From UHGV virus genome UHGV-0179803: a DNA stretch of 64,000 bases, one strand, 5' to 3'. Made by a program: the position numbers and the translations under genes. The notes beneath the pieces are model-generated. The model had not been told where the DNA came from. It made no database searches and was given only the letters and a program-made list of their open reading frames with translations. This DNA comes from a virus. Below, piece by piece: positions 1-35,800 of the stretch. How positions within the stretch are numbered: position 1 is the stretch's first letter; each line of letters starts with the position of its first letter.

Positions 1-2
1 AC

Positions 3-416
3 CAGTACAAGAAAGAGTCAGGAGTACTTGACTTCTTCTGTTCAGAATGCTATGATTGGGTTATGAATGGGGAAATAGAACATTCATTTGAAGCTATTGA
101 GCACCCTCGCAAAACCTTAGGTTGGAACAGGAACGAAATCCATTACCTCGCAGGGTTTGTACCTGGTAAAGATTTAGCTCCAGTGTATGGCTATGACCCA
201 GAGAAGAACTATCAGGAATTTTTGTGGAGAGTGATCTGCGGTAACATCTGTACTACTGAGTATCATTACCCAGAGGTACAGCAGTACGTATGGGCTTATC
301 CGCAACTTATGAATGATAGTATCACATTCAGTGCGAAAGAGTCAACTGTTGTTCACATGGGGCAGACAGCCCTTAAAAGCTACACAGAAGATGTGACACC
401 ACCAGACCTTTCATAA
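3..416 (+). CDS. hypothetical protein, 5' end outside window
   Basis: Frame open from first full codon of the window to stop at 414-416; lies just upstream of the fiber genes; no motif recognised. Confidence 0.4.
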   Translation, partial: QYKKESGVLDFFCSECYDWVMNGEIEHSFEAIEHPRKTLGWNRNEIHYLAGFVPGKDLAPVYGYDPEKNYQEFLWRVICGNICTTEYHYPEVQQYVWAYPQLMNDSITFSAKESTVVHMGQTALKSYTEDVTPPDLS

Positions 417-429
417 TCAGGAGAAATAA

Positions 430-1470
430 ATGGCTAAACCTAGTTTTCCTCTGGAGATATGGGCAGCGGAGGATCAAATCCTCCCCAACTCCCATAAACA
501 GAACAAGATGCGCCCCATTGACGACCTCTGGAGAAAAGGTTGGGATAAAGGGCAGAAACCATCGTGTGAAGAACTGAACTATCTCCTGAACATGATGGCT
601 ACCTGGGCTAAATACATTTCTGAAGATCAGATCCCGTCTATGGAAGGACGTTATCTTATTAAGGACAACAACCTGAGTGATCTTCTGAATGTAGAGATTG
701 CCCGTAAAAACCTTGGCATTGTTACCCAGGCTGAGACTGACGCTCGTTACGTTAAGATCACTGGTGACACAATGACAGGCCCTCTGGGGTTGCAACGTAT
801 TAATTTTGCGGCAGCGGAAACAGATGCGGCATGGATAGAAACCACAATCAGCCCAGATAAAACCTTGTTGGACTTCTGTCTGATGGATAACGTTGGTTCA
901 TTTGACGATGGTGGTACTTCCACAGTTGATGCTTTCCGTTGGAGATTCCAGCCTACACAACCAGATATCAACCCAGAGTTTACACTGATGCACCTGAATG
1001 CTATCTCTGTTAACCGTGCACTTCTCAAAGTCATCGGTAACATTGAAGCACAAGATAACGTGCGTTCCAACACAGTCACCATCACTGGTACAGCTTCCTT
1101 CGGTAACGTCAGCGTATCGAGCCAGTTGACCACAGGTAGCTTCTATGCTAACGGTGGTTCCAACGTTGATAACATGACAGTCCGTAGCCAGTATTGTGTG
1201 GTTGGTGGTCGCCATGTAGTTCGTTCAGTCAACGGTGTGAACGCAGATGGTAATGGTAACCTGACTATCAGTATCCCAGCTTCAGGCGTTCAGGATATTC
1301 GCTGCGGCGGTATGTTGATCGATGGGGTTTCTGATAACAGGGTACGTCCGGGTTATGTTATGAGAGGATGGGCTAATGGTAATAAAAAAGAACTCCGTGG
1401 TGCAGGTTACTGGGCAGCTCCGCTACAGAAACTTGTTAACGGACAGTGGATTACCGTTCAGACATTATAA
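430..1470 (+). CDS. tail fiber protein, paralog A
   Basis: 346 aa; SD AGGAG upstream; fiber motif RYVKITGDTMTGPL; N-terminal ~130 aa and C-terminal ~45 aa shared with ORF 2509..3573, central part divergent. Confidence 0.75.
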   Translation: MAKPSFPLEIWAAEDQILPNSHKQNKMRPIDDLWRKGWDKGQKPSCEELNYLLNMMATWAKYISEDQIPSMEGRYLIKDNNLSDLLNVEIARKNLGIVTQAETDARYVKITGDTMTGPLGLQRINFAAAETDAAWIETTISPDKTLLDFCLMDNVGSFDDGGTSTVDAFRWRFQPTQPDINPEFTLMHLNAISVNRALLKVIGNIEAQDNVRSNTVTITGTASFGNVSVSSQLTTGSFYANGGSNVDNMTVRSQYCVVGGRHVVRSVNGVNADGNGNLTISIPASGVQDIRCGGMLIDGVSDNRVRPGYVMRGWANGNKKELRGAGYWAAPLQKLVNGQWITVQTL

Positions 1471-1486
1471 TTGAGGGTTATAGATT

Positions 1487-2104
1487 ATGATTAAAATAGC
1501 TACAGGTTTTGAGTTGTATGATCCGCAAGAGCCTCGCCCAGAGGTGTTGGCTCTTGATGAAGATCAGCCACAAACCTTGGAATTAACAGAGCAGGAGATT
1601 GAAGATTACGCTCGCTATTCTGCTTACTTCCTTCGCAACGAGCACGGTGACTGGTATGCCCAGACCCGAGAATTACAGCAGATTGCCCAGGAATCTGGAG
1701 TAGAATACCTGTTTGCAGTCATAGAAGCTGATGGTTTACTGAAAATTGTAACCACGGACCCAACAGGTATTTTCCCCAGCAACGGTCTTCAAGTCCTGCA
1801 TGGTAAACGAGAGGAGTTCCCGGAAGACATTGAAAACATGATCAATGCCTACCGCTGGAATGGTGAGAAATTTGTTGTTGATAACAAACCTTACATCGAT
1901 GCTGCACAACAGGTTGTCGAAGAAGAGTTGCAATGGGCTACAGCAAGGCTTGGAGCTTTCAGCGACATGCTGGACTTGGATTATATACTCTCTCCTGCAC
2001 AGGAGCAGTTTGTTAAGGAATTAAAACTTTACAGGATTCATCTACTGGAGATTGATATAAACAAAGCCCCCAACATACATATCCCTGATCGCCCAGCCCT
2101 CTAA
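1487..2104 (+). CDS. hypothetical protein, possible tail fiber assembly chaperone
   Basis: 205-aa acidic ORF directly downstream of fiber paralog A; assignment by position only. Confidence 0.45.
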   Translation: MIKIATGFELYDPQEPRPEVLALDEDQPQTLELTEQEIEDYARYSAYFLRNEHGDWYAQTRELQQIAQESGVEYLFAVIEADGLLKIVTTDPTGIFPSNGLQVLHGKREEFPEDIENMINAYRWNGEKFVVDNKPYIDAAQQVVEEELQWATARLGAFSDMLDLDYILSPAQEQFVKELKLYRIHLLEIDINKAPNIHIPDRPAL

Positions 2105-2113
2105 GGAGGTAAT

Positions 2114-2428
2114 GTGGAACTGGACTTTGGTACGCTTTTTGAGATAATCATGAGCGCTATTGTCCCTATAGGTGTCTGGATTTTTGGTCAGTGGCACGTA
2201 AAATGGAAAGCCGTCTCTAAAAGATTGGATGATTTAGAGAAGGACCTTATTTTGGTGAAAAGCAATATGGTTACGAAAGACAGACTTGACGCGGTGCTAA
2301 ATCAGCGTCTTAAAGATATTCAAGATAACCTTGACGAACTAAGGAAAGAGGTCAAAGGTGACGTTAATGGATTGCGTAGTGATATTCAACAAATTATCCA
2401 GATTCTTCTCAGTAACAAGGAGAAATAA
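2114..2428 (+). CDS. small membrane-anchored coiled-coil protein
   Basis: 104 aa; GTG start shortly after AGGAGG; N-terminal hydrophobic helix (IIMSAIVPIGVWIFGQW) then charged heptad-like region. Confidence 0.45.
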   Translation: MELDFGTLFEIIMSAIVPIGVWIFGQWHVKWKAVSKRLDDLEKDLILVKSNMVTKDRLDAVLNQRLKDIQDNLDELRKEVKGDVNGLRSDIQQIIQILLSNKEK

Positions 2429-2508
2429 CCTGCGGCAAGGAAGCCTCTGGTTGCATTTTGAGGAGTTTAGTGCTAAAATAATGTCAAGAATTTTAGTCAG
2501 GAGAAAAC

Positions 2509-3573
2509 ATGCCAAAACCAACTTATCCGCTTGAGGTGTGGGCATATCAGGATGTGATGCTTGACACCACGCGAGAATTAAATAAGGCCCAGCCTAGTAA
2601 GGAACAAAGGTTAGCTGGTTGGGACTTCAGTCAGAGAATCGCTGTTGAACATATGAATTTCGAGTTCAATATGATTAGTAACTGGCTGAAATACTTGAAC
2701 GAAGAGGTTGTTCCTGGTTGGGATGATCGATTTTTAAAAGTTGCAAATAACCTAGCAGAAATACCGGATAAAGCTGCTGCAAGACAAAACTTAGGTTGCC
2801 TGACAATAGAGGAGATGGATGACCGTTATGTTCACCTAACAGGGGATACCTTGAAAGGTACTATGACTTTAGGGGTTACAAGGATTAATTTTAAATCTGC
2901 TGATACAGACTCGTGTGCGATTTATTGTTCCACGATTGCAGATACCCCAGGGTATAAAGGTGGGGATAAAACCTATTTCGATTTTCGTATGGCAGACAAC
3001 TACGGTACAGATGACATTGAGGCATCTTACTATACAGGCACAGAAGGATTCCGCTACAGATTCCACCCCGCAGGCGGTAGCTTGTTCACATTGATGAAAT
3101 TGTGTGCTATCTCTCCAAACCGTGGGAGATTGTCCGTAGTAGGTGACATTATTGCTGCTGATAACTTACGTGCTGGTTCTATGAATGGTAACACTGTTGA
3201 TATCTGGAGTACAGCTTCTGTATCAAGTCAGACACTGTGTGGTAACCTCTATACCAACAGTTTTAACTGCGATAGCCACACAACCCGTAGTAATTACCAT
3301 GTTGTAGGTGGAAGACATGTTTGCAGGTCAGTAAACGGTGCCACAGCGGATGGTAACGGCAACTTAACATTAACACTACCTCAACCCGCTATCTCTGATG
3401 TTCGTTGTGGAGGTATGCTGATAGATGGCACAGGTGATAACCGCGTAAGGGCTGGCTACGTAATGCGTGGTTGGCAGAATGGTAATAAGAAACAATTGCG
3501 TGGCGCTGGCTATTGGGCAGCTCCACTCCAGAAACTGGTAAATGGTCAATGGATCACAGTACAGACATTGTAA
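2509..3573 (+). CDS. tail fiber protein, paralog B
   Basis: 354 aa; SD GGAGAA upstream; motif RYVHLTGDTLKGTMTLG; C-terminus (RGAGYWAAPLQKLVNGQWITVQTL) identical to paralog A at protein level with many synonymous DNA differences. Confidence 0.75.
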   Translation: MPKPTYPLEVWAYQDVMLDTTRELNKAQPSKEQRLAGWDFSQRIAVEHMNFEFNMISNWLKYLNEEVVPGWDDRFLKVANNLAEIPDKAAARQNLGCLTIEEMDDRYVHLTGDTLKGTMTLGVTRINFKSADTDSCAIYCSTIADTPGYKGGDKTYFDFRMADNYGTDDIEASYYTGTEGFRYRFHPAGGSLFTLMKLCAISPNRGRLSVVGDIIAADNLRAGSMNGNTVDIWSTASVSSQTLCGNLYTNSFNCDSHTTRSNYHVVGGRHVCRSVNGATADGNGNLTLTLPQPAISDVRCGGMLIDGTGDNRVRAGYVMRGWQNGNKKQLRGAGYWAAPLQKLVNGQWITVQTL

Positions 3574-3583
3574 AGAAGGGGTG

Positions 3584-3952
3584 ATGTTTAAGAAAACCAA
3601 AGCCTTTTTGTGGATGTTGGTCGCAGCACCAGACGATCCCGACAAGGTATCTCAGACCAAGTTGTGGTCCAATATAGGTATGCTAGCTATGACTATCGTT
3701 TTCCTGCACATGGGGTACACTAATACTTTGCAGGAATGGTATGCATGGATCTATGCTCCTTCAGTTGCTTGCCCACAACTGATCAGCAAGTTTATTTCAC
3801 TTCGTTGGGGCTGGAGAAGTCCTTCTTTTGGTGAACGCTACCCAGATGAGGAGTATCCTGGTAGCAGATACTCAGGAGATTGTAACTACAGGCATTCTGA
3901 ATGTTCTGACTCCCCCATTGAACCAGAAGATTATAGAGATTCAAGGAGATAA
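3584..3952 (+). CDS. hypothetical protein
   Basis: 122 aa from ATG at 3584 preceded by GAAGGGG; hydrophobic segments; between fiber genes. Confidence 0.4.
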   Translation: MFKKTKAFLWMLVAAPDDPDKVSQTKLWSNIGMLAMTIVFLHMGYTNTLQEWYAWIYAPSVACPQLISKFISLRWGWRSPSFGERYPDEEYPGSRYSGDCNYRHSECSDSPIEPEDYRDSRR

Positions 3953-3953
3953 C

Positions 3954-5708
3954 GTGGCTCAAGATATGACAAACTTTGAGGAGGCCGTGGATCAGGTCAT
4001 AATTGATTCTGAGCGCCTCCATCTGGTTGTCAATGGTACTGCCGTGGATGAAGTTGTGGTAGAGGATGGGACAACCATCCCTACCGTCCGTAAGGCACTA
4101 CTTGATAACCTGTATTTTAAAACTCCACCAATCCCGTGGGTATATGGTTCTTCCACCACAGTATTTAACCAGATTTATGAATACAAAGCGGATGGAAAAA
4201 TCACATGGTGGTATGCTCCTGGAGCATCTAAATCCACACCAGTGCGCTTGCCAGCAGACCCTTTCACCTCTACCGCGTGGAGGTTGTATACTGATGCCAA
4301 CGTGCTTGCTGAATTCTATGCTAAACTGAGTAGCCCACTCTTCCAGGGGGATCCGCGTGTTCCGACACCGCCGATGGATGATAAATCTCTGTCCATTGCC
4401 AACACCACATTCGTTGTTGACTATGTAGACAGCATTTTTGAAGCTATGGCTGGTATGCAGGTCACAGTTGGTTCCCTAGTTGTTCGTGGCTTATCAGAAT
4501 TAGCTAACACTATTATTGACGGTACTTTAACTGTACGTGGTCCTTTAAATGCTTCCGACTTTGCTGGGCGTTTCAAAGAGTTGACTTTAACAGGTAAAGA
4601 TTCCGCTATCAATTTTAACTGGACAGACAGGAACCATCCTAACTGGACCTCCACAGCGCTGGATCCTTACAACATCGAGACTCACCTGTTGACCTCTGAT
4701 GTGATCCACAATGGTGCTCCGGTAAGTGATAACACCACTGTTCACTTCGATGGTCGCGGTAACAACTTCTTTGACTACGTTTATATTCGGGGGAATTCTC
4801 AGAAAGATGTTCAGGAACCCACCCTGACGGTTGACGGTGTAACTCAAGTCAAAGATCTGAAAGTAACAGGTAAAGTTGAAGGTATTGTTCACTCTGTAGA
4901 TGGTCTGGATATTTACCCGAACTATCTGGAAACAACTAACGATGCCCGTGTCAACGGTGACTTGCAGGTTGGTGGATCAGTGGTTATTCAGGGTAATGCA
5001 ATGGTTCAGGATTTGTCTACCAACACATTCAGATCTAACCAGCAGGCTACTTTTGAGGGTAACGGTATTGTTGCCAATAAAGCTGCGATTACGACTTTAA
5101 CTGGTACAACTGCCACCATTGATACTGGTAACTTCACTAATTGTAATGTGAATCACAACTTGCAGGTAAATGGGGATGTAAGCCTGAACGCAGAGGGTAA
5201 TGGTACGACTTATGTTCATAACATCCAGGTCTCTGGCACACTGACAGGTTGGATGCCGGATTACACAGGTAAAACTCTCAACTGTGGCGGTGTGAACGCA
5301 TCAGGTAACATCAGCATCAATGGCGACCTCAGCGTTGGTGGTAGCACTACAATTGGGAAGATCCGTACAACCAAACTGGAATTCGAATCTGAGGATATCG
5401 CTGGCGCTACGGGGACATGGACCCCATCAGGAAATGCTAACATGTACGTTGTTGAAGTTACTGGCGACCTGAACGTAGCAACATGGCCTGGCGTTACAGC
5501 AGCTTCAGAAGAGGATAAACCTTATCCGTTCTCAGTGGTGATTTATTTCCGTCAGGATGCTACAGGGCATCAGGTCACATTCAGTGATAAGTATGCAATC
5601 TTGTCTGCAACTCCTGTAGTTAACAACAAAGCCAATAGCGTGACCCTTTGTCAACTAACCTACCCTGGCTTCGGCGACATTGTGGACGTTATTATTGCAC
5701 AACGTTAA
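3954..5708 (+). CDS. tail fiber protein with conserved collar motif
   Basis: In-frame GTG 5 nt after AAGGAG (alternative ATG at 3828 would overlap upstream ORF); motif PTPPMDDKSLSIANTTFVVDYV typical of phage fiber N-terminal domains. Confidence 0.65.
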   Translation: MAQDMTNFEEAVDQVIIDSERLHLVVNGTAVDEVVVEDGTTIPTVRKALLDNLYFKTPPIPWVYGSSTTVFNQIYEYKADGKITWWYAPGASKSTPVRLPADPFTSTAWRLYTDANVLAEFYAKLSSPLFQGDPRVPTPPMDDKSLSIANTTFVVDYVDSIFEAMAGMQVTVGSLVVRGLSELANTIIDGTLTVRGPLNASDFAGRFKELTLTGKDSAINFNWTDRNHPNWTSTALDPYNIETHLLTSDVIHNGAPVSDNTTVHFDGRGNNFFDYVYIRGNSQKDVQEPTLTVDGVTQVKDLKVTGKVEGIVHSVDGLDIYPNYLETTNDARVNGDLQVGGSVVIQGNAMVQDLSTNTFRSNQQATFEGNGIVANKAAITTLTGTTATIDTGNFTNCNVNHNLQVNGDVSLNAEGNGTTYVHNIQVSGTLTGWMPDYTGKTLNCGGVNASGNISINGDLSVGGSTTIGKIRTTKLEFESEDIAGATGTWTPSGNANMYVVEVTGDLNVATWPGVTAASEEDKPYPFSVVIYFRQDATGHQVTFSDKYAILSATPVVNNKANSVTLCQLTYPGFGDIVDVIIAQR

Positions 5709-5715
5709 TTAATTA

Positions 5716-5745
5716 GCCTCTCCTGCGGGAGAGGCTTTACTGTTT
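5716..5745 (+). terminator. intrinsic terminator
   Basis: Hairpin GCCTCTCC-TGCG-GGAGAGGC followed by T-rich run, immediately after fiber gene stop. Confidence 0.7.
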
Positions 5746-5755
5746 GGAGAACACA

Positions 5756-8700
5756 ATGCTTCCAATTCCTCTGTTAAAACTTGCTAATTTCCATCTGGAC
5801 TCGAAGGATGGGATCAAGGAACTTGCTGTTCTGTCCTACCCAATAGATAAAAGTGATGGTACTAGCAGCACAGTATCTTATGTAAACAGTCTTGCAATTC
5901 TTTATGCAGATGGTTTGCTCGTTCTGACAGGCGCTAACAAGTATGGCGAATGTGGAACAGGTAATCGCAACGAATGCATTTACCCGAACGAGTCGATCCG
6001 CAACATCGATCATGTCTGGAGAGCAGATCGTTCTTTCGTGGTTGAAACTTTTGATCATGAATTCTTTTACATCGGCTGCACAGCGGGTCTTATTGGCTCC
6101 ACAGCGGCTGGTGGTAACGATGTTTGTGTAACCCAGTGGACTGCACTACCTTCACAAATTACGACCACTCTGGGGCTTGATAAGCACCCAGAACGCTTGC
6201 TTGAAGTTTGCGGTGGGATGAACAACACTTGCTGGGTAATTGGTGCACCTGAAGGTGAAGGTATCTGGGATATCTACGGTTCAGGCAACAACACCTACGG
6301 TTCTTTGCATGTGGATAAAAACCAACATGCCAACCCTGTTAAAATTGCTGAAACTTCTCAGGATCCTGTAACAGGGCAGTGGAAAAACCCAGCACTAAAT
6401 CTGGAGGTCCACGATAACTCTGTGATCTATGGTGGCCCAGATGGCTACTGGATTGCTGGTTACGATTTCCTGCGCAATAATAGTGAGCTTAATCTGGTTT
6501 ATCCACCAGAACACGGGACATGGGCAGCTTTGACAGGCAGCAGTGAAACCTACAAATGGTTCATGTGTGGTCCGAATGGGGCTGTAGTTGCTACAGAGCG
6601 TAATCACACAGATGGTATACCTGTGTATGTATTCCGTGGACAGAATTCCTGGGGTGATAAAACCTGGCGCCCATTGAACCTCACCTATACCCATGAAGTG
6701 ATTATTGCACAAGGTCATGCTACTAACGGCATCTTCTTTAATAACGGTACAAAACAGTACAGAGGTTTCTCTCGTAACCTGTGTAACGATATTGGCTGGT
6801 CGTCTGCTGAAGCCAACCCTCGTGCACAGTTCCAGCACAAGCAGGCAATTGCTACAGCTGCATACGTCGAACAACGTACACCTGTTAGTTGGGCTGAGAA
6901 CGTATACTTCCAGGGCATCAACCGGGAAGGTTACTTGGGCACACTAACTGTGGTAAACGGTAAACTTTGGTGGTCCGGTATTCCTCGTGGCAGCTTCCCA
7001 GGAAGCAACAACCTGTTTGGAGGCCAACTCAATTCTCAAGGTTTTACACAGGTAGACCCGAACTGGATTAAGAACGTTCCAGTATCCAGTTTTGAGGTTG
7101 AAGAAGTTATTAGAGTCAACGGTTGGGGGACTGAGCGCCCTGTCAGTAACATTTATATTGGGGATACTGTTCAGCTCAGAATTAAAGCTCTACCAAGAGG
7201 TGCTACATGGTTTGTAGACAAAGTTGAGATCACAAATGCAGCACAAACTGTTGTAAGCGATCCTCTGTATACTGCAACCATTAACCACAACGTGTTTGGT
7301 GTATGGGATAGTATTGTTACCCAACAGAATAAAAACGTTGATCGTCGTGGACTGTACCATGTTAAAATCACCTACCATGATAAAAATGGTACTCACACAC
7401 ATCTAACCAGAAACATCAACTGGAACACGATTGTACCTGTGATCCCTTCGGATAGTACATGGTACACTCAAGGTCTGAGCCGCTCTTTGTCTTTGGGCAG
7501 CACAACCTATTTGGGTCTGGATACTGCACAACCTGCAACTGAAAATGCTGACGCTTTTAAAATCAGATTACACAGGAAAGATGCAGGCTCTGTGACCTAT
7601 GATGTGACACAAGAACTTTACAACCAACGCCGTGAAATGTATAACTTCCTGGTCACTCATCAGGCACTGTGGGAATACAACCCGAACGGTGCTGGTGGTA
7701 AAATGTATCAGGCCAACGAACAGAACGGGACTTCTCTGAACATCCACTCAGATAAAAACCCGTGGGCTACGCCTGAAAGACCTCCTAGCTGGGCACGTAC
7801 TCTGAAAGTTGTCAGCTACGACGCAGGTTTCTTTGGTTTGCGTTGGGAATCAACAATTGAATACTATGATGGTACTCACCAGAACATCGGGTTAACCCTT
7901 GGTGGGGATTCTGCCAGCACTTCACGTAAGATTGTCCGTACGCCACGCGGTGTGGATATCTCTGTTGATCTTGTTAAGAACAGTTATGGGGATATTCAGG
8001 CGCATGTAACACCTGCTGAGGCTGCGAATAATATATCTTATAATATTGCGGCATTCAAAGAGGATCCTCGCGTTGTTGGTGCGCACGATGCCGACTGGTA
8101 TTACACCATTACACCCACTGCTGATACTACCAACTTCATGTTAGGTATGAAACGTGACATGCAGAAAAAACTAGGTGTTACTGACCTGTGCTACGTTTGC
8201 ATTAAAGATACCCGTGTTAAAGATACGGATCCTGAAGCAAAATGGTTTACCGTTGACCCGAATACCATACGTAGTGATAAGTTTGTTAACGAATATATCC
8301 TGTGCGCTGGCGGTACTAACCTGAACTTGTTCTGGAGTGAAAACGCTGATAAATATTGTAGTTATGATTACTTACGTGATTATTGCTGTAACCAGTGGTT
8401 TACCAACGGCAACGGCTATGTGCCTCGCCAATGCCAGACACTGCCAGCCATCTTCACAGATAACCAGACATTTTTGCTGAAACAGGCTAATGAAGTTCAG
8501 GTTGATAAAAACGGGTATGATGGAACCAAATGGTTCTTTAACTGCTATGCTCAGTATTATTGGGGTCCTGGGGAGCTTCTCAGTGATGCAGGTTGCAATC
8601 TGATGGATAAAGAAATAGGCTCATGGACTCATATGAACCAAACCTGCAACTTTATTCCACAGAACGCAACATCTGAGGGGTCTTCAGTTCTGGATGCTTA

Positions 8701-31458: not shown

Positions 31459-32193
31459 ATGAAGCAAGGTGTAGTGTGGGCTTTATTCAATGGCTCCGAT
31501 ATTGCTGTCAAACCCTGGGCTGATGCAGGGTATTTGTGCTTCTGCTTCAATGCAGAAGGGGCAGATCACGGGAGCTATGCAGAGGTAGTAGAAGAACATC
31601 CCAACATTAAGTACATAGATTACTGGATTGACCCGTGGTTCCCACAAGAAACCTTGGGGATGTATCCTGCACCAGATTTCATCCTGTCGTTTCCACCATG
31701 TACCCACTTAGCGGTATCTGGAGCAGCACATTTCAAGAAAAAATTACAAAAAGATCCGTTGATTCAGGTCAATGCTGTAAAAGATGCACGTATTGCAGAA
31801 ACATTGGGTAACATGTATAATTGTCCGTGGCATGTGGAGAACCCTGTTGGGGTTATGTCTAATATGTGGCGTAAACCAGACTACAAGTTCCATCCGTCTG
31901 AGTATGGTGGCTATCTGCCGGAAGATGACCAGAACCCGTGGTTCCCTGACCTGATTAAGCCCAGAGATGCTTATCCGAAGCTAACCTGTGGATGGTTTGG
32001 GAATGGTTTTGTTGTCCCTGAGAAACGACCTGTGCCGCAGATTTGTGATGTAAATGGGTATTCTTTCCAACATACCAAACTGGGAGGAAAATCTCCTCGT
32101 ACCAAAATGATCAGAAGCCTGACACCTCGTGGTTGGGCATTAGCCGTGTTTGAAGCCAACGAACCCGTTGTAAGGAGCAAACTCAATGGTTGA
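31459..32193 (+). CDS. C5-cytosine methyltransferase-like protein (minimal, no obvious target-recognition domain)
   Basis: 244 aa from ATG after GGAGGG; motif I-like LFNGS, motif IV SFPPCTHLAVSGAA (Pro-Cys), motif VI HVENPVG (ENV), in the order and spacing expected for C5-MTases. Confidence 0.5.
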   Translation: MKQGVVWALFNGSDIAVKPWADAGYLCFCFNAEGADHGSYAEVVEEHPNIKYIDYWIDPWFPQETLGMYPAPDFILSFPPCTHLAVSGAAHFKKKLQKDPLIQVNAVKDARIAETLGNMYNCPWHVENPVGVMSNMWRKPDYKFHPSEYGGYLPEDDQNPWFPDLIKPRDAYPKLTCGWFGNGFVVPEKRPVPQICDVNGYSFQHTKLGGKSPRTKMIRSLTPRGWALAVFEANEPVVRSKLNG

Positions 32194-32857
32194 CTGGAGC
32201 AAATATTTCACCTACAGTGACGGTAAACTGTTCTGGGCGTATACCGCAAAAGCCGGAAGAGGCAGGGTTATACATCACGCAGGCGAGGAGGCCACAGGTA
32301 CAGACACAGATGGCTATAGGGTGATAAGTGTGTCAGGTGTTGGACGTGTTAGTAGGCATAGAATAATTTGGGAGATGCATTACGGGGAGATACCTGAAGG
32401 CCTTGTTGTGCGGCACAAGAACGACATAGCAGGCGATGATAGGATAGAGAACTTAGTCCTAGGAACACAGGGAGATAATGTACGAGACATGATCTACAGT
32501 GACAAATTGAACATTAACAATACCTCAGGGTGTCGAGGTGTATGCTACCATAGGGGTGTAAAAAGATGGATTGCATCTGCTGGAGACATATATTTAGGAT
32601 GTTTTAAGACAAAAGAGGATGCAATTACATGCAGAAAGTTATGGGAGGAGGGAAAATTCGTCCCGCAAGAATTAGATGTTAGAAATACCAGCGGTGTAAC
32701 AGGGGTGTTCTATGTGCCAAGCTCTGGAAGGTGGAGAGTTAGAGTACAAAGTGGCAAAAAGAGAAAGAGCTATGGTAGTTACAACACTTTAGAAGAAGCA
32801 AGAGCTGTAAGGGACAGAGTGATGAAAGAGATTGAGGAGTCTAAAGATGGGGAATAA
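32186..32857 (+). CDS. HNH homing endonuclease with AP2-type DNA-binding repeats
   Basis: 223 aa; HNH_3-like GYRVISVSG...RVSRHRIIWEMHYG...VVRHKNDIAGDDRIENL; two AP2-like repeats (TSGCRGVCYHRGVKRWIA, TSGVTGVFYVPSSGRWRV). Confidence 0.75.
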   Translation: MVDWSKYFTYSDGKLFWAYTAKAGRGRVIHHAGEEATGTDTDGYRVISVSGVGRVSRHRIIWEMHYGEIPEGLVVRHKNDIAGDDRIENLVLGTQGDNVRDMIYSDKLNINNTSGCRGVCYHRGVKRWIASAGDIYLGCFKTKEDAITCRKLWEEGKFVPQELDVRNTSGVTGVFYVPSSGRWRVRVQSGKKRKSYGSYNTLEEARAVRDRVMKEIEESKDGE

Positions 32858-35800
32858 GTTTATACCCTCTGCGTATAGTCGTTATGGGGAACCGAACCCA
32901 GTTGCAACAAGATACAAAAGCGGAGGCAGTATGGCACGAGACTATCGTGATGAAAAAGAGGTTGAAACTGTAGAGACTGTTTTAGAAAATACTAAAATTG
33001 TCCCTGTTCCACAACAAAATATCGGACTGACGGCTGCACAATATTTCGGTGTGCGATCAGCATTGTCCCAAGAAGATGGTGTGACAGTCGTTGCAACATA
33101 TTTCCCATATTACAACCGCTACGGCAATCTATCTGGCTTTAAAAAGCGTGATTGGTCTAAGCCAAAAGAGCAGAAAGGGCACTGGTCTGTAGTAGGCATT
33201 GTTAAGGCCAACAGCCAGTTCTTCGGTCAGAAAATGGTTGGTGAAGGCTCAGACCATCGTAAAATCATTGTCTGCGAAGGTGAAGGCGATGTTATTGCTG
33301 CGTGGCAGACTGAATGGATGATGGTCAGGAAAATAGCTACAGACCCGTCATCAAATAAGAAAGCTAAAGCGTGGGCACAAAGCGTTCTTGACGGTATTAA
33401 AGCCGTGCAGGATGGTGGTTCTGCTAAAGGTTTTCCCACAATTAACGTGGTAGGGCTTAATTGTGGTTGTGCGAATGCCGTAGACGCTTTTGCCAACAAC
33501 GAGAAGTTTATTCGTGGCTTTGATGAGATTGTCCTGGCCTTCGATAATGACGCTGCAAATGATGTTGAGAAGCTAAAACATGTCACCAAAGGTGTTGAAG
33601 CCACTCACAATGTTGCAGCTTTCCTGATGGCTGACAACGTTTTCCATGTGCAGTATCCGAGCGAGGTAAATGATCCAGAGGGTTACAAAGATATCCGTGA
33701 TTTGTTCCAGGCTAAAAAGTATGATCAAATTCACGATATGTTCAAAAACCCGATCAAATACGTGCCAGACGCTGTAGCAGGCCTGAATGATTTCTCAATT
33801 GAAGATTTACGTAAAAAATCCACCAATGGTGTTGACATTGGGGCAGAGTTCCCTAAACTCCAGAAAATGTTGAAAGGTTTGCATAAAGGCACACTGGTCA
33901 TGTTGACTGGCCCTTCCGGCGGTGGTAAGACTACGGTAGCTAAGAAGATTGAGCACCAGATAGCTAAATACCTGATGGATCCTACGGTGGCTAAAGCTGA
34001 TGACTACGACCCCGAAGACAGGTTGTGTATGATTCACCTGGAAGAGGACCCAGAAGAAGCCATCAACTCGCTGTATGCTAACCAGCTGGGGTATGATATC
34101 AAGAATTTCATGGAGGACCCAAGCAAGTATCTGACCGAGCAGGAACACTTTGAAATCCACAAAGCCTGGGTTGATGCTGATAAAATCAGAGTATTCCGGC
34201 ACTTCGGTTCAATACCTGTAAACGACCTGATCACCAAGCTGAAACAGATGGTGTGCTTGTATCATTGTCGTTACATCGTACTGGATCATCTGTCAATGGT
34301 TATTTCTGGTTTGAATGTAAAAGATGAGCGTAAAGAGCTGGACCTTGCAATGACGCAGCTTGCAGCATTCTGTAAGCAATTCAATGTGTTCATTTTGGTG
34401 ATTGCACACTTACGTCGTACAGAGATTATCCCACCGAAGGATAAAGAAGGTAGGGCTTTACCGTTCTGGTATCCTGTCCGTAAAGAAAACCTTCGTGGTT
34501 GTGTTTCTGCGGACACAGAGTTTTTAACCCCGCAGGGGTGGAAACGCATAGATAACTATGCAGAAGGGGATTTGGTTGCGCAGCACGATGAAAATGGCGT
34601 AATGACTTTCGTAACCCCGAAAGCCTACATCAATCTTCCTTGCGAAGAAATGTGGCATGTTTCCAACACTCACGTTGTAGACATGTTGTTGAGCGATGAA
34701 CATCGTGTTGTATATGTGAATGACAGAACGCCAGATGTTTTCCGTACGAAAACCATGTTGGAAGTTGTCTATGACCACAACAACAAGCCTTCAGGTATGC
34801 GTGGGAAAATACCTGCTACGTTCCTCACAGGGTGCAATGGGACGCTGGGGTTGACTGATGACCAATTACGCCTACAGGTTGCTGTAAATGCTGATGGGAC
34901 AGTTCTTACTGAGTCAACAGGAAGAGTGGCTGTGAGAATCAAAAAAGATCGGAAAAAACAACGTCTCGAGATGCTGCTGGAGAAAACAAACACCACTTAT
35001 AGGCGTCTTGATTTGCACGGGGTGCACGAAGGACGCACAGAGTACCAATTTAAAGCACCGTGTGGGTATAAAGGTGTGACTGGGGAATGGTTTAATCTCA
35101 AACAACACGAGTTGGAGATTATCTGTGATGAGGTTATGTATTGGGACGGAGATTCTGTGAACAAAAACAGGGTGTCCACCATTAACAAACTTGAAGCGGA
35201 CTTCTTACAGTTTGCCTACAGCGCCTGTGGACATAGAACATCTTTATCCATGAAGGAGAACAACAGTGGCTTTGGCGGTAGTTACAACTGTAAACCTTTG
35301 TACGAGGTAAATGTTTGCAATACTAAGTACATGCATATACGCAAAGGTAGTAATAACAAACCCTCTATTGAACGTGTACCTTCCCCAGATGGACGTAAGT
35401 ATTGCTTTACGTTACCGTCGGGTATGTGGGTGGCGCGCCGCAATGGGCATATTTTTATCACAGGAAATTCGGGGAGTATGGAACAACTCAGTTGGGTTGT
35501 CATAGGGGTAGAAGCAGAAGAGATGCCTGACAGGTCCCGTGGGCGTGTCCGTTTAGTTAGCCTAAAAAACAGGCCAGCTAAAACCTTGGGTATCGCTGAT
35601 GTGCTGATTATGAACCCTGAGACTGGTAAATTCTCCGATGCCAGTGACTGGGTGTGGGATAAAGAGACAGGTTTCTTCCTGAACAAAGATGGGGATATTG
35701 TCTGGAGGCCACAAGATATGTTCGACAATGAAGAACATGTTGTTGTGGAAACTCCTGAAGGTAAGGTTACCGCCGATGTGAAACCTCAACCAAAATCTGT

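Follow-up and report, generated by a model that had tools for sequence, protein, structure and literature searches.

Two Short Tail Fibre Genes of an Uncultured rV5-Like Phage Encode Nearly the Same Distal Tip, Which Evolves in Concert

Introduction

Why would a phage carry two neighbouring tail fibre genes whose products end in almost the same amino acids? This question is raised by a 64,000-nucleotide stretch of the virus genome UHGV-0179803 (hereafter the window, to which all coordinates refer), whose positions 1-6000 form a compact run of plus-strand genes. Two of these, here called A (430-1470; 346 amino acids) and B (2509-3573; 354 amino acids), encode intact paralogous tail fibres, and each is preceded by an AGGAGA ribosome-binding site (RBS). 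A first-pass annotation of the sequence had taken the pair for a dual-receptor cassette in which conserved ends frame unrelated, swapped central domains, and had proposed the small open reading frames (ORFs) between the two genes as cognate chaperones. The two intact genes, their GDTMTG/GDTLKG motifs and the near-identity of the last ~45 residues were all borne out by our analysis, while the relationship of the central domains turned out to be a different one.

Paired fibres of this kind have been described before. In phage rV5, gp30 and gp33 are similar short-tail-fibre-like proteins (42% identity) that were detected in virions by mass spectrometry together with gp32, and two lipopolysaccharide (LPS) chemotypes were suggested as their targets (Kropinski et al., 2013; PMC3606486). 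A later study ascribed to the Vequintavirinae sensu stricto a pair of paralogous short tail fibres with a chaperone, homologous to GpS/GpU of phage Mu, and reported glucose in the LPS outer core as the terminal receptor of these phages (Maffei et al., 2021; PMC8594841). For rV5, both paralogs and the chaperone are thus already on record; what is new is that the near-identical tips of the two fibres, by which we mean the last ~60-65 amino acids of each, are kept so partly by gene conversion. A search of the literature returned no report of concerted tip evolution in these fibres.

Our overall reading, to which we assign a probability of roughly 0.6, is that A and B are paired short tail fibres of the Vequintavirus type which are served by a single tail fibre assembly chaperone (Tfa), carry the same tip and differ in anchor and shaft.

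Results

A and B Are Homologous Throughout and Resemble gp33 and gp30 of rV5

BLASTP aligned A with B from end to end (184/363 residues identical, 51%; E 6e-120), and both proteins cover positions 1-341 of the 342-position PHROG family phrog_4465 ('tail fiber protein'; E 1e-150 for A and 5e-114 for B). Identity is unevenly distributed along the two proteins: it amounts to 40% in the first 120 residues (47/118), 42% in the centre (50/120), 76% in the last 105 residues (79/104) and 93% in the last 45 (42/45). The N-terminal ~130 residues, regarded as a conserved end in the first-pass annotation, are accordingly no better conserved than the centre. AlphaFold2 (AF2) monomer models, which we used only to read the order of secondary-structure elements and the top fold match (predicted local distance difference test score, pLDDT, 67; predicted template modelling score, pTM, 0.37), show helices and strands in the same order in A and B, the centre included, with no unrelated fold in either central domain; in the model, B differs from A by an 8-amino-acid loop insertion between central strands. 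Since BLASTP, PHROG membership and the AF2 models agree, the centre is diverged but homologous, and the description of the central domains as unrelated and swapped has to be abandoned.

When we searched with tblastn, both A and B grouped with the rV5-like phages (Vequintavirinae), and every Vequintavirus genome yielded two matches. The gene order of the locus is that of rV5, gp34-gp33-gp32(Tfa)-gp31-gp30-gp29-gp28-gp27, as judged from the rV5 annotation set against the window ORFs with their PHROG and Pfam assignments. A is 73-75% identical to rV5 gp33 overall; by region, the values are 76% (first 120 residues), 77% (centre) and 62% (last 45 residues). B reaches 48% overall with its best phage matches at the gp30 position and 61% with gp30 over the first 120 residues, a region in which the cross pairs attain 39-42%. 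The centre of B is ambiguous (40-44% to all other copies), and its last 45 residues are 43% identical to those of gp30. By these comparisons, A is the one-to-one ortholog of gp33, and B that of gp30. The duplication had been called old on account of synonymous differences; it is indeed old, given that the N-terminal regions pair A with gp33 and B with gp30 although A and B themselves share only 40% there. The tip breaks this orthologous pattern because it has undergone concerted evolution, as set out below.

In the single-fibre genera represented by PVP-SE1, EspYZU14, KpS8 and PaulScherrer, the wedge genes are followed by one fibre gene, a Tfa gene and a gp31-like gene. By position, then, the ortholog of the single fibre is A, and B is the extra copy. 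At the place of B, these genera have an extra membrane protein with four transmembrane (TM) segments.

Megablast of window positions 1-6000 against cultured phages gave no match, and for window positions 22-46 kb it gave only patchy matches of 73-89%; since the locus itself returned nothing at the nucleotide level, relatives were found through proteins. Positions 1-6000 are 100% identical over 6 kb to positions 993-6992 of a 139,523-bp metagenomic contig (L011; ENA ERZ1034815 NODE_8), and B is identical to DAM57125.1, deposited as 'MAG TPA: Caudoviricetes sp.'. The clade comprises more than 150 variants in metagenomes, the cluster of B alone has more than 170 intact members, and the locus recurs in five related metagenomic genomes (L002, L003, L004, L009 and L010). 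The window comes from an uncultured rV5-like myophage of ~139.5 kb without a close cultured relative.

Both Fibres End in a Mu gpS-Type Tip and Share One Tfa

The tip modules of A (amino acids 287-346; 1288-1467, plus strand) and B (amino acids 295-354; 3391-3570, plus strand) are identical at 52 of 60 positions. We built a family profile from 54 members, which matched residues 438-503 of Mu gpS (PDB 5YVQ; E 1.4e-6), residues 480-553 of the phiTE short tail fibre (E 1e-7) and the central region of Mu gpS (E 9e-4). In Foldseek searches, the Mu gpS-gpU structure 5YVQ was the only significant match for both models (E 3e-8 and 1.5e-8). By these measures, A and B share with Mu gpS a homologous distal tip of ~65 residues. 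At the other end of the proteins, residues 1-104 of A match residues 1-106 of the phiTE short tail fibre (PDB 9CUY) with 75 bits (E 7e-20), and the N-terminus of B matches residues 1-104 with 33 bits (E 3e-7); the invariant residues P4, P7, W11, N25, P29, G37, D39, E47, N50 and W59 are present in both A and B. Residues 3-92 of the phiTE fibre dock on baseplate wedge protein 1 (PMC11972413). Sequence comparison hence identifies the N-terminal ~90 residues of A and B as homologs of this wedge-docking domain, which A keeps far better than B.

Directly downstream of A lies a plus-strand gene (1487-2104; 205 amino acids) for a Tfa homologous to rV5 gp32. Its product matches PF02413 (Caudo_TAP) with 27.0 bits against a cutoff of 22.1 and phrog_136 with E 3e-19, and it is 44% identical to gp32, with the C-terminal half better conserved. 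This distribution of conservation fits the domain account of Tfa proteins by North et al. (2019), as relayed in PMC9608196, in which the variable N-domain binds the distal end of the fibre and the conserved C-domain brings about trimerisation, and in which TfaMu remains attached to the virion. A search of the Tfa sequence against the PDB gave irrelevant weak matches only, and tblastn with Tfa found no second copy in the window, which covers 64 kb of the ~139-kb genome; B is followed by a gene for a small membrane protein instead.

The other small gene between A and B (2114-2428, plus strand, GTG start) encodes a 104-amino-acid protein that is 51% identical to rV5 gp31 (phrog_5345, E 4e-34). 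It consists of a hydrophobic N-terminal segment and a coiled-coil-like remainder and bears no recognisable chaperone signature; its homologs in PVP-SE1 and KpS8, both single-fibre phages, are annotated as membrane proteins with one TM segment. Because single-fibre genera have a gp31-like gene as well, gp31 is no chaperone dedicated to B. The proposal that the intervening ORFs encode chaperones consequently holds for the Tfa gene and fails for this TM and coiled-coil protein.

These data bear directly on the idea that the two fibres recognise two LPS chemotypes or receptors through their diverged centres, which was put forward both in the first-pass annotation and, for rV5, by Kropinski et al. 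(2013). The centres of A and B do differ at ~58% of their positions, B has its loop insertion, and both rV5 orthologs are present in virions. Moreover, the central beta domain of B is its most variable part among clade genomes: a hot-spot at amino acids 147-206 (2947-3126, plus strand), which overlaps part of the insertion loop, varies at 26 of 60 residues in four clade genomes, and the same comparison counted 80 variable columns in B vs. 34 in A, so that B evolves ~2.4 times faster. Against a receptor-driven diversification of this domain stands the ratio of nonsynonymous to synonymous differences (pN/pS), which remains below 1 in every segment of B and averages ~0.1-0.36 in its centre rather than exceeding 1. 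In the solved homolog from Mu, chaperone (at the end of the fibre; 5YVQ) and receptor are both bound by the distal C-terminal domain of gpS, and it is this same domain type that sits on both fibres here; in rV5 the tips of the two fibres differ, whereas in the window the dual-receptor idea meets one and the same tip. The residues that distinguish the A and B tips are, furthermore, polymorphic toward identity in the population: at the five tip positions separating B of the window from A, the 17 B alleles carry A-type states in mosaic combinations. In the opposite direction, a B-type state was seen there in 0/15 A-cluster alleles of the clade, and among the sequenced loci only A of L002 shows one (P to A). 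We therefore consider two receptor specificities an unlikely explanation for the pair.

The Two Tips Evolve in Concert

If A and B are instead paired fibres with a common tip, the question becomes how the tips stayed alike after so old a duplication. At the nucleotide level they did not: over the last 45 codons, A and B are 75% identical, with a proportion of synonymous differences (pS) of 0.84 and of nonsynonymous differences (pN) of 0.08, which corroborates the many synonymous differences noted earlier. Synonymous sites are saturated, the longest identical run in the tip is 11 nucleotides, and the same codon is used at 14 of 38 conserved tip residues vs. 14.8 +/- 2.9 expected if codons were drawn independently according to the codon usage of the phage. 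This last agreement also led us to reject selection for extra synonymous divergence as a means of avoiding recombination. The region is detectable as a direct repeat (1294-1490 vs. 3397-3593; 72% identical), whose extension beyond the stop codons we rejected as a real repeat, since it reflects RBS-like similarity only.

The tip is the least conserved part between orthologs (A vs. gp33) and the most conserved part between the paralogs of the window. Over the last 60 codons, pN is 0.12 between A and B and 0.25 between A and rV5 gp33; given that the duplication predates the split between rV5 and the window lineage, as the N-terminal data indicate, the lower value for the paralogs reverses the expectation. 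Nor can the tip pattern be put down to faster evolution in rV5, since the outgroups lie equally far from A of the window and from gp33. When derived residues were scored against gp33, PVP-SE1 and PaulScherrer, 14 in the last 60 residues were common to A and B, with one in A only and six in B only; the corresponding counts for the first 120 residues were three, four and 28.

Sister genomes preserve stretches in which A and B are identical, all of them within the last ~60 codons. These tracts measure 110 nucleotides in L003, 46 and 47 in L009, 30 in L004 and 23 in L002, and the B tip sequence of L009 recurs in L010, an independent sample. Patches shared between genomes were found as well; B of L002, for example, equals A of the window over 32 nucleotides. 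A GENECONV-like permutation test returned p <= 0.0005 for L002-L004, 0.003 for rV5 and 0.23 for the window. The shared derived residues and the tracts of the sister genomes together imply that the tips evolve in concert: they have been homogenised by recurrent gene conversion between the paralogs and then kept by strong purifying selection. The window has retained no recent tract of its own, and the identity of its tips, which exists at the protein level only, is held purely by purifying selection; its pair represents two 'pure', long-separated nucleotide lineages that encode nearly one tip.

The earlier claim that selection maintains the duplication is thereby upheld in one respect, since purifying selection acts on both copies. 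It falls short in another, since simple retention of the tip is at odds with the greater difference between orthologs and with the conversion tracts of sister genomes. A version of simple retention without any concerted evolution would have the ancestral tip preserved by purifying selection in all copies except rV5 gp30, which alone diverged. It would account for the window pair, with its saturated synonymous sites and no detectable conversion tract, and for the occurrence of the motif G[ND]KKELRG...PLQ..[VI]NG.W.TV in PVP-SE1 and in phi92-like fibres. It does not, however, account for the 14 derived residues common to A and B, for a paralog pN that is half the ortholog pN, or for identical A/B tracts visible in four related genomes, and we regard it as improbable. 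That B is a redundant or decaying copy without a role of its own, as its faster evolution and its more diverged wedge-docking N-terminus (33 vs. 75 bits against phiTE) might be taken to indicate, is highly implausible for a gene that is intact in all seven genomes examined and in each of the >170 members of its cluster noted above, has a strong RBS and a conserved late-promoter-like motif, shows pN far below pS in every segment, and whose rV5 ortholog gp30 is found in virions (PMC3606486); neither copy in the window is a pseudogene.

Neighbouring Genes and Regulatory Signals

An 80-nucleotide spacer separates the gp31-like gene from B and contains the late-promoter-like sequence TGCTAAAATA (2471-2480, plus strand), 29 nucleotides upstream of the B start codon (ATG). 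It resembles the late-promoter motif TggTAaAAtA of rV5 (PMC3606486). As the only match to this motif in the window, where 0.55 are expected by chance, it is weak evidence by itself; the same sequence is conserved 29 nucleotides upstream of B in L002 and L003 (5963-5972) and in L004 (4911-4920), and rV5 has TGTTAAAATA at the corresponding place upstream of gp30. The exact late-promoter motif in rV5 and KpS8 sits upstream of the baseplate wedge gene. For sigma-70 promoter-like sites, the count in the window matches that expected from shuffled sequence (11 vs. 10.8); terminator-like sites are only slightly more frequent than expected (7 vs. 4.3 +/- 2.0). We took the antisense ORFs inside A and B for mere side effects of coding on the plus strand.

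Upstream of A, the window begins within the 3' end of an rV5 gp34-like gene (1-416, plus strand), which was recognised by phrog_6040 (E 4e-40), a weak match to PF23845 and its gp34 position. The full-length counterpart in L002 (1821-3899) matches PF23845 with E 1e-78 and PF23844 with E 5e-15, and the gene belongs with N4 gp65, a receptor-binding protein known as 'non-contractile tail sheath' (PF23844/PF23845). An N4 gp65-like gene is found at this position in rV5 and the clade of the window and is absent from the single-fibre genera examined; among these phages, the gene at this position and the second fibre thus occur together.

Downstream of B follows an rV5 gp29-like gene for a small membrane protein (3584-3952, plus strand; phrog_1322, E 1.5e-26, and synteny), whose ATG start at 3584 was read from the sequence. 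The length of its product differs among close relatives, with 122 amino acids in the window, 90 in L009 (4576-4848) and L010 (2305-2577) and 118-126 in others. The next gene encodes an rV5 gp28-like tail fibre of 584 amino acids (3954-5708, plus strand; phrog_4549, E 6e-208; PF26208/PF26209 in relatives) with a GTG start and an AAGGAGA RBS; the TTG at 3828 that had been listed as its start is an over-extension into the preceding gene, and we rejected it in favour of the GTG at 3954. A 1939-amino-acid ORF with a TTG start (5744-11563, plus strand; phrog_15684) corresponds to the giant fibre gp27 of rV5 and has weak RCC1-like and Ig-like domain matches. At this position L002 has a gene of only 838 amino acids, which marks the distal fibre gene as highly variable in the clade.

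Two further features lie outside the fibre locus. A cluster of tRNA genes (Met-CAT, Thr-TGT and Arg-CCT; 14557-14800, minus strand) is located inside a minus-strand block at ~12-22 kb with reversed GC skew. Positions ~31515-33315 give the best megablast match to cultured Vequintavirus genomes within 22-46 kb (83-89% vs. 73-77% elsewhere) and contain a Dcm-like methyltransferase, a homing endonuclease and the start of a primase/helicase, which suggests a recently exchanged mobile segment.

Discussion

In the reading that we favour, A and B would both be trimers folded from the C-terminus by the single Tfa, which may remain part of the virion, the situation in Mu and rV5. Both would be anchored by the N-terminal domain to the periphery of the baseplate, and both would present the same tip, most likely to a conserved element of the LPS outer core, for an irreversible adsorption that would come after the lateral fibres have bound. 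The two fibres would then differ in their position, geometry or number on the baseplate and not in the specificity of their tips. A shared chaperone, a shared receptor or both would make exchanged tip segments interchangeable and hold the tips in lockstep.

One may go further and regard A and B as 'two clients of one chaperone', whose tip segments could be exchanged freely since each tip has to fit the one Tfa and the same LPS-core receptor. Conversion would in that case be limited to the last ~60 codons, recurrent and bidirectional, and would drive the concerted evolution of the tip while anchor and shaft diverge; the phage would place the same tip at two positions or in two geometries, or carry 12 fibres instead of six, and its receptor range would not be broadened. 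A and B chains might even assemble into mixed trimers, with nucleation at the tip that they have in common. We offer this more specific proposal tentatively and rate it below even odds.

Several observations weigh against the common-tip reading. The rV5 locus, too, has one Tfa, yet its two tips are plainly different (48% over the last 45 residues, 21/44 identical), from which it follows that a shared chaperone alone does not force tips to be identical. For the pair in the window itself, the case for conversion is indirect: it comes from the sister genomes and from the derived residues common to A and B, the permutation test on the pair giving p = 0.23. The sister loci, moreover, are metagenome assemblies. 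The structural match to Mu gpS-gpU comes with template modelling scores of only 0.22-0.26 and from models of low-to-medium confidence (pLDDT 67, pTM 0.37). Lastly, the variable hot-spot in the centre of B could be a receptor contact outside the tip.

The comparison shows that a part of the fibre usually seen as a determinant of host range can be homogenised between two co-resident fibres, and a duplicated fibre need not mean a second receptor specificity. This is of relevance for the genome-based prediction of host range and for the engineering of rV5-like therapeutic phages. The locus as such is a new uncultured example of a published module, to which the concerted evolution of the tips makes a modest specialist addition.

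A comparison with better-known adsorption systems places the module as follows. With gp12 of phage T4, the fibres share a proposed role, the irreversible binding of the LPS core after primary adsorption, and the resemblance is functional only. HHpred similarity to gp12 was reported for gp30 and gp33 by the rV5 authors (PMC3606486); T4 gp12 chains were found neither among our PDB sequence matches at E <= 1 nor among the Foldseek matches listed, and the chaperone in the window is of the Tfa type, not gp57A as for gp12.

The fibre of phiTE (9CUY) and fibre III (gp147) of phi92 have the homologous N-terminal wedge-docking domain and the homologous C-terminal ~65 residues. Their genes lie directly after the wedge genes, as in the single-fibre genera, and in the virions six downward-pointing trimers are mounted on the wedge; each of these phages has a single copy of the gene, whereas the window has two. 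The phiTE fibre is larger, its 554 amino acids including a long coiled coil as well as Ig-like domains, and phiTE is flagellotropic.

With Mu gpS/gpU, the locus has in common the C-terminal tip, a homologous central region and a Caudo_TAP gene directly downstream of A. Mu, however, possesses two alternative C-terminal parts with two chaperones (S/U and S'/U') that are switched by DNA inversion and provide two specificities, while the window has two complete genes in the same orientation, one chaperone, one type of tip and no flanking inverted repeats; its N-terminal anchor is of the phiTE/Vequintavirinae type and not of the Mu type. A Mu G-like invertible switch was accordingly rejected, both genes being on the plus strand and the inverted repeats amounting to chance-level pairs of 14-22 nucleotides.

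The closest system remains rV5, with the same order of genes from gp34 to gp27. Divergence from the rV5 counterpart is much greater for B (from gp30) than for A (from gp33), and the distal ends set the two phages apart: against the 21 of 44 identical residues between the rV5 tips stand 42 of 45 between those of the window, both of which are gp33-like.

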